Below are positions 3,803 to 7,501 of a stretch of DNA of 7,501 nucleotides, piece after piece (positions within the stretch are counted from its first letter, which is position 1; each line of letters starts with the position of its first letter). The notes under the pieces were generated by a model. It ran no database searches, had not been told where the DNA came from, and worked only from the letters and a program-made list of their open reading frames with translations. The position numbers and the translations under genes were made by a program. The stretch comes from a virus (lineage: Duplodnaviria; Heunggongvirae; Uroviricota; Caudoviricetes): the IMG/VR virus record IMGVR_UViG_2609460344_000017; one strand, written 5' to 3'.

Positions 3803-4221
3803 CGCACCACCTCCTCAAAATTCCCCTGATAAAACGCCAGTACGCGCTGCATAACTTCGCTCTTCCGGCACTCGAGACAGATTATGTTCAGACGCCTGTC
3901 GTAGCGGCGTATTTCGCCATCTGGTAATGACCAGATAAGGTCCGGATCAACCGCAGATGGTTTCTTCAGCTTTGCCCTTGAGAGTTTTTTGCGGGCATTT
4001 TGCCAGTCTTTACGAGCCTGTTCAGACGGGAATAACCCGTAGCCAGAATTGTATACATCGCCACTGGCAACCAGCTCTCTGGCCAGAACGCTCATCAGAT
4101 ATCTTGTTGCCCCAGTTTTAGTTTCCAGTTGTCGTAACGTCTCGCGCCCACTCTGGCGTACGAGTTCAACAACCTGCCCTTTAATTTTTTCCCGCTCTTC
4201 TTGTGTAAAAACTTTTGCCAC
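3799..4221 (-). CDS. Hypothetical prophage protein (140 aa, basic)
   Basis: GTG start at 4221-4219 preceded by AGGAGG at 4 nt. Lies 37 bp downstream of the replication gene stop; in an operon with the two following genes. Confidence 0.65.
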   Translation of the reverse strand: MAKVFTQEEREKIKGQVVELVRQSGRETLRQLETKTGATRYLMSVLARELVASGDVYNSGYGLFPSEQARKDWQNARKKLSRAKLKKPSAVDPDLIWSLPDGEIRRYDRRLNIICLECRKSEVMQRVLAFYQGNFEEVVR

Positions 4222-4258
4222 AAGCCCTCCTGAAAATTACCCCATGACCTGAAATCTG

Positions 4259-5329
4259 TTACCCTCTGAATCCCGGCGGAATTTCGGTGTCCGGTTCAGA
4301 AATATGATTAACACAACGCTGGTTGTTCGTGCCGCTTACCGGGAGCAACCAGGGGTTTTCAAAATTCCGGTCCGGTCCAAAAAACGTCGTCGCTCGCTGA
4401 ACAAATTCCGTTCCCGTTTTCCCGGTAGCCGCCAAGTATCTTGCGTAACGCCTCACGCCATCCAGCATGGCCTCTGGTGGCACCCCCTCGCGTAATCTGG
4501 CCTTCCAGGCACTGAAAGCGGATTTCTTCGGGTTTGCCCCAGCACGCAACGGGTACTCCCGCCAGACCTGTTCGAACACATCCGGATAATCCACTCGTCC
4601 CACAGACTGCCCGGTGTTTTCCGGGACTACCCGATCGGCTTCCCGCTGAATGGCGGAATCGGCTTCGGGCTGCTGCAGTTGGTGTGATTGCTCCGGCCTT
4701 GCGGTCATCACCTGCTGCACAGCGCCCGAATCGGCTTTCAGCGCATACGCTGAATCGGCTTCCGGTGTCGTGCCTGCTGGCTGACCAAGATTGACGGTCT
4801 GAACATCCCCTGCCTGGTTCGTGGCGTTTTTTACGCCATGGACCATAGTGTTTTGATCTTCTTGATCTGTATCTTTATCTGTATCTTTATCTGTCGTGAC
4901 TCGTCGTGACATGTGCGTGACATTTCGTGACGCGCCGTGACAATCGCCATTTTGTTCCCGCTTTCTTTCCCTCTCTCGCTGCGCCCTCTTGCGCTCTGCA
5001 GGAGATTTTGCGGTTTGCGAAATATTGCCGTTGTCCTCTTTAAGCACCTGGCGTTTTTCCCATCCAGTGATTAAATCACCATCAAGTACCCGCCCCTGCA
5101 TCGTCTGCAAAATTGAATCAATTACCTCTTCTGTCACGTCGAGCGCACTTGCCAAATCTTCTGTCGTGACATCAATGTGACCTCGCGTGACATTTCGTGA
5201 CGCGCTCACCAGGAGGTGGATATACACTGCCATCACTGTTGCAATTGGCTGCCCTGACACCCTGGCAATTGTTCGCCACTTAGGGTCATTTGGCATGTCA
5301 TGCCATAATCTGAGCCAGGCGTTAGCCAT
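4259..5329 (-). CDS. Phage replication initiation / replisome-organizer protein (lambda O-like architecture), 356 aa
   Basis: ATG at 5329-5327 preceded by AGAGGTGA; an alternative in-frame GTG is at 5335. N-terminal domain, a charged low-complexity linker (TDKDTDKDTDQED, ERKRAQRERERKRE) and a C-terminal domain ending ...FEQVWREYP...KKSAFSAWKARL, which resembles conserved phage replication-protein C-termini. Iteron arrays sit inside the gene. Confidence 0.8.
   Translation of the reverse strand: MANAWLRLWHDMPNDPKWRTIARVSGQPIATVMAVYIHLLVSASRNVTRGHIDVTTEDLASALDVTEEVIDSILQTMQGRVLDGDLITGWEKRQVLKEDNGNISQTAKSPAERKRAQRERERKREQNGDCHGASRNVTHMSRRVTTDKDTDKDTDQEDQNTMVHGVKNATNQAGDVQTVNLGQPAGTTPEADSAYALKADSGAVQQVMTARPEQSHQLQQPEADSAIQREADRVVPENTGQSVGRVDYPDVFEQVWREYPLRAGANPKKSAFSAWKARLREGVPPEAMLDGVRRYARYLAATGKTGTEFVQRATTFFGPDRNFENPWLLPVSGTNNQRCVNHISEPDTEIPPGFRG
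4864..4894. repeat. AT-rich tandem repeat (GTATCTTTATCT x2 plus partial copies) adjacent to the iterons
   Basis: Exact 12-mer at 4869-4880 and 4881-4892. Encodes the TDKDTDKD linker on the minus strand. Candidate DNA-unwinding element. Confidence 0.5.
4891..4941. repeat. Iteron array 1: five tandem 10/11-bp repeats with core CGTGAC (candidate ori)
   Basis: CGTGAC at 4895, 4905, 4916, 4926 and 4936, giving a helical-turn spacing of 10-11 bp, inside the replication gene. Confidence 0.6.
5161..5201. repeat. Iteron array 2: four 10/11-bp repeats with core (C/T)GTGAC
   Basis: Cores at 5165, 5176, 5186 and 5196, plus an inverted copy GTCACG at 5133-5138. Shares exact segments CTGTCGTGAC and CATTTCGTGACGCGC with array 1. 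Confidence 0.5.
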
Positions 5330-5400
5330 ACTCACCTCTTTTGATACCGAATCTTTTTACTCACAAATTGCCGGAAGTGATCCGGTATGAATATTGCGAG

Positions 5401-5826
5401 TCAATGCACAGCCACAATATTTCCTGCAGGGCCACCACGATTCATCTGGTTGAAACCAGCGATCGCCACTGCGACAAAATCATCAGCGTCTCTCACCAGT
5501 CGTTCCCGCGTCTCCACCAGCTCCCGAAAATAAGCTGAACTGTGGCTGCGCATTCTGGCCACCAGCAAAGGTGGCATTGCCTTTTCGATCGCTGGTAACA
5601 ACGCCTGAATTTTTTCAACTGCATCAGGGGTGTCTTTCTCTACCCAGCGGAAAATTTTCTGGGTATTGCGAGCCAGGGCTTCCGGATGGCTGTCGTCATA
5701 CAGTTCTGGGAACGTCATACCCAACTCAAAATAAGCCTGGGTTATTCCAGCTGCTGGAACTTTCTCACCATCAGGATATGCCCAGGCATTCATCGCCATG
5801 CGGATGTGCTCATGTTTGATTTTCAT
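5401..5826 (-). CDS. ydaT: YdaT-like protein (Rac prophage ydaT homolog), 141 aa
   Basis: ATG at 5826-5824 with AAGAGG ribosome-binding site. Size, sequence (MKIKHEHIRMAMNAWAYPDGEK...) and position immediately downstream of a ydaS-like gene match Rac prophage YdaT as I recall it. Confidence 0.8.
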   Translation of the reverse strand: MKIKHEHIRMAMNAWAYPDGEKVPAAGITQAYFELGMTFPELYDDSHPEALARNTQKIFRWVEKDTPDAVEKIQALLPAIEKAMPPLLVARMRSHSSAYFRELVETRERLVRDADDFVAVAIAGFNQMNRGGPAGNIVAVH

Positions 5827-7205: not shown

Positions 7206-7501
7206 TTAGCGCCAGTAAAAACAGGTTTCCACAGGTTAATTTACCCTGAAAAGTCAGGGCATAACACGAAAGCGCACGGCGAGATCCCTTTGCATATAAG
7301 TCTTGTCGTTAAATTTCTTCGACCGTGCGCTTCTGGTTGTGGCAATCCGCGAAATGGCGCGGCGGTAAGTATGGCGGGGGTATTTCTTCCCCCGTTGAGG
7401 ACACCGGGTTGTCAGGGTGACCATACGCTTAAGTGACAACCCCGCTGCAACGCCCTCTGTTATCAATTTTCTGGTGACGTTTGGCGGTATCAGTTTTACT
7501 C

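Follow-up and report, generated by a model that had tools for sequence, protein, structure and literature searches.

Why should a gene for a phage replication initiator carry a short DNA motif repeated once per helical turn? The question is raised by a 7,501-nucleotide (nt) stretch of viral DNA (Caudoviricetes; IMG/VR record IMGVR_UViG_2609460344_000017), hereafter the window, in which an earlier note, made from the letters alone, had seen a candidate replication origin of the lambdoid kind in phased CGTGAC hexamers inside an initiator gene. Our analysis leads to a similar answer in a modified form: the prophage, a Rac-like lambdoid element of E. coli, probably starts its replication from this region, inside the gene for its own initiator, and the layout of the region is best read as an origin made of iterons plus an unwinding element, comparable to ori-lambda and SPP1 oriL, in two parts. 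The comparisons described below argue strongly that the repeats are a functional DNA element, and they make a good case for an origin. Coordinates are positions of the whole window; CGTGAC on the plus strand corresponds to GTCACG on the minus strand, which is the strand of the gene.

Two phased repeat arrays in the initiator gene

The window contains nine CGTGAC hexamers (2.03 expected; none of 200 dinucleotide-preserving shuffles reached nine). Five of them start at 4895, 4905, 4916, 4926 and 4936 of the plus strand, with spacings of 10, 11, 10 and 10 base pairs (bp), as the earlier note had described, and Tandem Repeats Finder reports the same array (array B) as a 10-nt period present 4.9 times at 4893-4942. 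The extent given in that note (4864-4941) was correct in itself but too small for the feature, having missed a second array and a single inverted copy located between the two. The second array (array A) comprises four copies in the same sense (GTCACG, GTCACG, GTCACA and GTCACG on the gene strand, spaced by 10, 10 and 11 bp; on the plus strand, CGTGAC at 5165, 5186 and 5196, and ATGTGAC at 5175-5181). Both arrays end in the 11-mer TCTGTCGTGAC, and they are connected by a 39-nt direct repeat (4903-4941 versus 5163-5201, 72% identity). Motif counts and searches for tandem and direct repeats revealed no further repeat cluster in the window; the GTGAC copies at 7417-7478 are unphased and unrelated. 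DnaA boxes (23 versus 17 expected in the window) were absent from the arrays, the AT-rich stretch and their immediate surroundings, and the promoter and terminator scan of the window gave counts at the level of chance.

Array A encodes the peptide A45-S-R-N-V-T-R-G-H-I-D-V-T57 in the N-terminal domain of the initiator, and array B encodes C-H-G-A-S-R-N-V-T-H-M-S-R-R-V-T in a linker predicted to be disordered (AlphaFold2 predicted local distance difference test, pLDDT, ~50), in line with the inter-domain linker that the earlier note had proposed. The copies of the hexamer are translated in three different frames (gcG TCA CGa, GTC ACG and gGT CAC), which excludes a peptide repeat as the cause of the pattern.

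Codons inside the repeats are frozen

The first 165 amino acids (aa) of the initiator, used as query, retrieved 1023 proteins, many of them 60-70% identical and belonging to Enterobacterales, Pseudomonas, Achromobacter, Azotobacter, Chromobacterium and Neopusillimonas. When one genome per species was scanned, 38 loci were obtained, of which 37 were usable, and the same layout is present in about 22 of these, in beta- and gamma-proteobacteria ranging from E. coli to Bordetella, Pseudomonas, Acidovorax, Aquitalea and Chromobacterium, with guanine-cytosine (GC) contents of the gene from 0.41 to 0.69. In these homologues array A usually has four GTCAC (3-4 or more) at gene nt ~117-166, and array B three to five at gene nt ~377-436 (482-502 in homologue L095); most GTCAC-type homologues also have one inverted GTGAC at the equivalent position (gene nt ~181-199). 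The logo obtained from 163 copies is (T)GTCACG, with a core of 6 bp and a period of 10-11 bp.

The codons were compared in an alignment of 20 GTCAC-type genes, restricted to conserved amino acids. Nine conserved codons whose third base lies inside a repeat had a normalised entropy of 0.04 and a major codon at 98%, versus 0.76 and 57% for the 64 other conserved codons (Mann-Whitney p = 3e-6). The codons retained were: GTC at three Val positions (20/20 each; 22% of Val codons elsewhere); ACG for Thr (20/20; 23% elsewhere); GGT for Gly (20/20; 19% elsewhere); CAC for His (19/19; 58% elsewhere); TCA at two Ser positions (19/20 and 20/20; 14% elsewhere); and GTG for the Val of the inverted copy (17/17; 30% elsewhere). 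Along the gene, array A reads GCG 18/20, TCA 19/20, GTC 20/20, ACG 20/20, GGT 20/20, CAC 19/19 and GTC 20/20, and array B TCA 20/20, GTC 20/20 and CAC 17/17. With synonymous sites near-saturated outside the repeats and frozen within them, the alignment indicates unusually clearly that these codons are held fixed by a DNA signal rather than by the protein; the suggestion of the earlier note that selection on the DNA sets the peptide is thus strongly borne out in the 20 homologues.

Changes in copy number amount to seven codons, equal to 21 nt and to two repeats. The five copies of array B in the window compare with three or four in most relatives; in array A, L083 (E. albertii) has six instead of four, and seven extra codons are present also in P0020. 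Edge repeats come and go, so the distance between the arrays is uninformative for helical phasing. No variation was seen among 69 homologues at residues S46, V49, T50, R51, G52, H53, S136 and T147. A scan of IMG/VR with the N-terminal 162 aa gave 80 loci, unusable for tests of divergence because all are 99% identical, and the repeat pattern was the same in 67 of 71. Close relatives are encoded by more than 580 IMG/VR stretches; the N-terminal domain was found in only 25 records of the phage collection, with no classical model phage among them.

An AT-rich stretch adjoins array B

The AT-rich 12-bp tandem repeat that the earlier note had placed before the hexamers was recovered by Tandem Repeats Finder (TCTTTATCTGTA, 2.9 copies at 4860-4894, 95% matches), and it coincides with the GC minimum: GC is 0.35 at 4840-4899, the lowest value of the 4000-5600 profile, and the lowest-GC 40 nt of the gene are at 4851-4890 (GC 0.25). 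GATC sites are not clustered here: the AT-rich stretch has only two (4855 and 4864), and the whole window is depleted in this motif. In nearly all GTCAC-type homologues the lowest-GC 40 nt begin at most ~10 nt from the last repeat of array B, and in most of the other sub-families they are at the corresponding position. The GC content of the stretch is 0.15-0.38 in the homologues, even where that of the gene is 0.60-0.69; a (C/T)AGATAAAGATAAAGA motif recurs, and purines mostly make up 60-90% of the gene strand. The codons of the D-K-D encoded there are GAT 18/18, AAA 16/17 and GAT 15/17, versus 54-55% elsewhere. This is the pattern that an unwinding element under selection at the DNA level should present.

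The polypyrimidine tract noted earlier after the hexamers does exist on the plus strand (~4947-4998), as the antisense of a basic helix of the initiator (AERKRAQRERERKREQ, aa 112-129), but it is not conserved at the DNA level. Among homologues the codons for Arg, Lys and Glu in this helix vary freely and are synonymously saturated (entropy 0.93-2.33 bits); the tract is a by-product of coding. On the other side of the AT-rich stretch there is an inverted repeat, TGGTTCGTGGCGT-TTTTT-ACGCCATGGACCA (DNA fold -10.9 kcal/mol, z -5.15), which is not conserved as such among the diverged homologues examined. Several diverged homologues have inverted repeats of the form C5-6...G5, located 45-55 nt past the AT minimum and coding for PPxPPRG.

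Both arrays change repeat type together

In more distant homologues GTCAC is replaced by another 6-7-mer with the same 10-bp period, and the replacement is found in both arrays: CGAACGC in L109, L111 and L113 (array A, nt 131/141/151; array B, nt 362/372); GTAACG(C) in L101, L104, L112 and L114, the last of which has the same ETTGNAGVTQG-coding block in both arrays; and CGTCACG in L106, with extra copies in both arrays. Three repeat types thus occur within one order, the Enterobacterales, and GTCACG occurs in two proteobacterial classes, which argues that the reader of the repeats is encoded by the element and is not a host factor. The initiator gene is the only gene always linked to the repeats, and this complete linkage is circumstantial evidence that its product binds them.

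In an alignment inspected by eye, the basic helix preceding array B reads RKRxQRxRE in the GTCACG type and ERxRx[W/Y/F]RE in the CGAACGC and GTAACG types, some sub-families of the latter two also having a nine-residue deletion upstream of it; this helix could be a second determinant of specificity. The distant homologues L116 and L118 (Serratia, Pantoea) have no repeat arrays, and at the place of array B (gene nt ~300-420) they have an insert resembling a GIY-YIG nuclease motif (YVYYV...GISxNPWAR).

The initiator protein and its neighbours

The assignment of the gene as an initiator, already made in the earlier note, agrees with an end-to-end match of the protein to phrog_3729, 'replication initiation protein' (E 7e-258). 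The protein is 98-99% identical to those encoded by phages Tritos, Evi, 204576 and others, the same gene is present in many E. coli prophages, and near-identical genes are annotated as replisome organiser, (DNA) replication protein O or primosomal protein I. No Pfam family was detected at E <= 0.01, and no NCBIfam family was significant. Phage_rep_org_N (PF09681) gave E 0.13 (12.7 bits versus a cutoff of 23.3, spanning profile positions 1-118 of 121), with matches at E <= 1 in only 2 of 69 homologues, and the Pfam family of lambda O, Phage_rep_O, was not detected even at E <= 1.

AlphaFold2, run with an alignment of 69 sequences, gave pLDDT values of 90-98 over most of aa 6-95, with helices at 6-16, 18-27 and 31-47, a loop at 48-57, helices at 58-65 and 69-79, and a hairpin at 80-90. 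This N-terminal domain is predicted with confidence to be a winged helix, the nearest structural match of the model being the N-terminal domain of DnaD. In the same model it is followed by the basic helix, a disordered linker to ~aa 250 and a helical C-terminal domain (251-319). Array A codes for the end of helix 31-47 and for the loop 48-57, which tolerates insertions; the inverted copy codes for the turn of the helix-turn-helix; and array B with the AT-rich stretch codes for aa 132-165, in the disordered linker that separates the N-terminal domain and basic helix from the C-terminal domain.

The initiator ends in 24 residues similar to those at the C-terminus of the host DnaT (PDB 6aep, 2ru8 and 9zbt, E 0.018-0.067), and these were the only part of the initiator matched in the search of PDB sequences. 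The NCBIfam DnaT model (NF002770) matches aa 335-358 only (E 0.0015), and with 18.1 bits versus a cutoff of 201 the protein is not a full-length DnaT (primosomal protein I). The DNA-binding DnaT domain PF17948 was found by Pfam in 21 of 69 homologues, and not in the initiator of the window. The C-terminal domain of DnaT makes filaments on single-stranded DNA at the site of helicase loading (PMC13377028), and the tail may connect the initiator with the host machinery for helicase loading. Over its C-terminal 44% (4259-4737) the gene is 82% identical to genes of the Shiga toxin (Stx) phages 75/02 and POCJ13 that have an unrelated N-terminal part, and the recombination joint lies in the linker downstream of the proposed origin; the Pseudomonas homologue P0058 stops directly after the AT-rich stretch. 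These two cases suggest that the N-terminal domain plus the origin behaves as an exchangeable unit.

Upstream of the initiator, on the gene strand, are the RacR equivalog (E 9e-74) and ydaS/cro-like and ydaT/cII-like genes; directly downstream there is a DUF977/Ren-like gene. In relatives the next gene (L105 2286-3005; L084 2264-3082; L097 2427-3254; L104 2364-3113; L114 2400-3140; L102 2286-3761) encodes a lambda-P-like protein (PF06992, Phage_lambda_P; L105, E 3e-32; L084, E 3e-10), a DnaC/IstB-like AAA+ loader (L097, L104 and L114) or a DUF4942 protein. This variation suggests that one origin-binding module has been combined with several solutions for helicase recruitment, and where a loader gene follows, the order initiator-loader is that of lambdoid replication modules. 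The positions of all the elements are listed in Table 1.

Table 1 Elements of the initiator gene and of the putative origin (coordinates of the window)
Element	Position	Strand	Remarks
Replication initiator gene	4259..5335	-	358 aa; contains the entire repeat and AT-rich feature
Winged-helix N-terminal domain, coding region	5051..5320	-	aa 6-95; presumed reader of the iterons
Iteron array A	5165..5201	-	Four same-sense copies
Single inverted iteron copy	5133..5138	+	Between arrays A and B; codes for D66-V67-T68
Basic helix, coding region	4949..5002	-	aa 112-129; its plus strand is the polypyrimidine tract
Iteron array B	4895..4941	-	Five GTCACG (gene strand), spacing 10-11 bp
AT-rich, strand-asymmetric stretch	4851..4894	.	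Proposed DNA unwinding element; gene strand ACAGATAAAGATACAGATAAAGA
13-pair inverted repeat	4815..4845	.	Gene-downstream flank of the AT-rich stretch; membership of the origin uncertain
DnaT-like C-terminal 24 residues (..SEPDTEIPPGFRG)	4262..4333	-	Matches in PDB and NCBIfam

A putative bipartite origin

We propose that the winged-helix domain of the initiator would bind the short GTCACG repeats, which lie on one face of the DNA since they are one helical turn apart. Binding at arrays A (5165-5201) and B (4895-4941), ~230-260 bp apart and with the inverted copy (5133-5138) between them, would build a nucleoprotein complex, possibly looping the intervening DNA, which may destabilise the AT-rich stretch (4851-4894) and lead to its opening. 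The C-terminal part would then recruit the host helicase DnaB: in the phage of the window, through this part with its DnaT-like tail and with no loader gene of the phage; in the relatives, through the lambda-P-like or DnaC-like loader encoded next door. Transcription from the promoter on the cro side would traverse the origin, as in lambda.

Several points weigh against this proposal. The initiator is under the threshold of every Pfam initiator family, the DnaT-like match is limited to ~24 residues with weak E-values, and the window contains no phage helicase loader gene. Array A has no strongly AT-rich stretch adjoining it, and its role is left unexplained. Since the repeats lie inside the initiator gene, their co-variation with the initiator is not independent evidence of binding. 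The 6-bp core with a period of 10-11 bp is much shorter than the iterons of lambda, which measure 18-19 bp and follow one another at about two helical turns (PMC3349717, PMC7466680), and the literature search, extended to GTCACG iterons, Rac oriJ and the Eru modules of Stx phages, found no publication describing this family of origins.

Alternative explanations

The alternative that survives best is that the repeats are bound by the initiator, or by another phage protein, for regulation (autorepression, a roadblock, or control of copy number or incompatibility through pairing of the arrays), the origin being elsewhere. The presence of two separate arrays, only one of which has an AT-rich neighbour, would fit such a role, as would a weak promoter-like match overlapping array B (plus strand, 4917-4944), and bipartite sets of iterons with a control role are found in P1 (incC/incA) and P4 (ori/crr). 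We consider this explanation improbable, however: promoter-like matches are at the number expected by chance (2 versus 1.9), the window has no other repeat cluster, and in almost every homologue, even in hosts of 60-69% GC, the AT-rich, strand-asymmetric element abuts array B, which is the signature of an unwinding element and not of an operator. A control role of array A would be compatible with an origin embedded in the initiator gene, and offers no replacement for it.

It is less probable still, to the point of being hard to credit, that the repeats are read by other machinery, as a packaging (pac) site, a partition site or the target of a host DNA-binding protein, although phased arrays of short hexamers around a central region resemble the P1 pac site and some plasmid centromeres. 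The arrays accompany the N-terminal domain of the initiator across many genera with varied neighbours (P-like, DnaC-like, DUF4942, DUF977), and the motif changes between related initiators within one host order, which speaks against both a host factor and a link with packaging or partition; neither the open reading frames (ORFs) of the window nor the family searches revealed terminase or Par genes adjoining the initiator gene. Finally, that the repeats are the DNA shadow of a peptide motif (S-R-x-V-T) or of a recent internal duplication deserves almost no credence, despite the double occurrence of ASRNVT..VTT, the invariant residues and the 39-nt direct repeat, given the frozen synonymous sites, a hexamer read in three frames with a period of 10-11 nt that is no multiple of three, insertions exactly two repeats long, sub-families in which both arrays have another DNA motif and code for very different peptides, and encoded segments that are a loop and a disordered linker.

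Comparison with known origins

An origin embedded in the gene of its initiator is in itself a known arrangement. In ori-lambda the iterons and an AT-rich tract lie in the middle of gene O (PMC7466680, PMC3349717), and in Stx phages two extra iterons lengthen O by 13 residues (PMC7466680); in SPP1 oriL the boxes bound by G38P and the unwinding element are embedded in gene 38 (PMC5737612). The lambdoid arrangement put forward in the earlier note holds for position and order: the candidate lies within the initiator gene, between the DNA-binding and the partner-binding halves; an array of direct repeats is followed, on the transcription-downstream side, by an AT-rich tract; added iterons are in-frame residues of the protein; and the gene follows cro/cII-like genes and, in relatives, is followed by a lambda-P-like loader. 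It does not hold for the protein, which is not a homologue of lambda O and has no Pfam hit. Also unlike ori-lambda, there are two arrays and an inverted copy, one of the arrays being inside the coding sequence of the DNA-binding domain, and no P gene follows immediately in the window, a DnaT-like C-terminal tail being present instead.

With SPP1 oriL and G38P the candidate shares, as judged from sequence and comparison, the boxes and unwinding element within the initiator's own gene, with the AT-rich part placed after the repeats along the path of transcription, and its initiator resembles the G38P replisome organisers in the winged-helix fold similar to the N-terminal domain of DnaD. It differs in that Phage_rep_org_N is under threshold, in the sequence and spacing of the repeats, in belonging to Proteobacteria and not to Firmicutes, and in that the window encodes neither a phage helicase nor a loader. 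The likeness to the RepA_N-type initiators (staphylococcal multiresistance plasmid, PDB 4pta) is at the level of fold only, with no sequence relationship detected, and these belong to plasmids of Gram-positive bacteria.

The earlier note had looked to lambdoid or Rac-like phages for comparison; the layout is kept in the ~22 homologues, but the Rac prophage of K-12 has another replication module. It has the same immunity region (RacR, ydaS and ydaT), followed by ydaU (DUF1376) and ydaV (a putative ATP-binding protein, which we take to be DnaC-like) in place of the initiator and the DUF977 gene of the window. The window is therefore a Rac-like prophage with a different replication module, and oriJ, the origin of K-12 Rac, was ruled out as the origin of the window because the replication pair is not the same.

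A more ambitious claim, which at present we hold to be doubtful, is that the locus represents an undescribed family of bipartite origins that is widespread among phages of Proteobacteria, with sites in two places of the initiator gene including the surface loop of the reader itself. In the literature searched we found no description of a bipartite layout with an array in the coding sequence of the DNA-binding domain, nor of hexamer repeats spaced by one turn, nor of conservation of such breadth. If the claim were true, the gain or loss of repeats (21 nt, seven residues) and the switches of repeat type would directly remodel the initiator protein, and array A would be a required second anchor, the ~230-260 bp being looped or wrapped to fire the element beside array B; in the strongest form, the reading head would include the loop encoded by the repeats or the adjoining basic helix, making site and reader one and the same stretch of DNA.

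Short of that claim, the locus provides a concrete candidate origin for a replication module common in prophages of E. coli and Shigella, present also in the isolated phages Tritos and Evi and in prophages of Pseudomonas, Bordetella, Aeromonas and others, where only its protein has been annotated. It is likewise a clean natural example of dual coding, in which a putative DNA-binding signal freezes codons and determines the residues of a loop and of a linker, and in which copy-number changes of two helical turns are seven-residue insertions. For those who annotate or engineer lambdoid and Stx-type prophages, this is a region in which "synonymous" edits would not be neutral.

Other features of the window

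The motif GA(A)TCGGCTT occurs four times in the initiator gene (4633, 4657, 4728 and 4752), in pairs 24 nt apart, coding for EADSA, KADSG, EADSA and EADR in a window-specific Gln/Ala/Glu-rich segment of the linker (4633-4761) that is missing from most homologues. Downstream of the replication region, at 1303-2938, a convergent overlapping pair of genes encodes a 'beta protein' (PF14350, E 4e-52) and a protein of the sce7726 family (NF033832, E 2e-56), and looks like accessory cargo, possibly for defence. A small toxin ORF of the Hok/Gef type is located at 590-802 on the minus strand, phage Tritos having an annotated HokD toxin at the same relative position, and the ORF adjoining it (136-396) is apparently the end of a transposase ORF.

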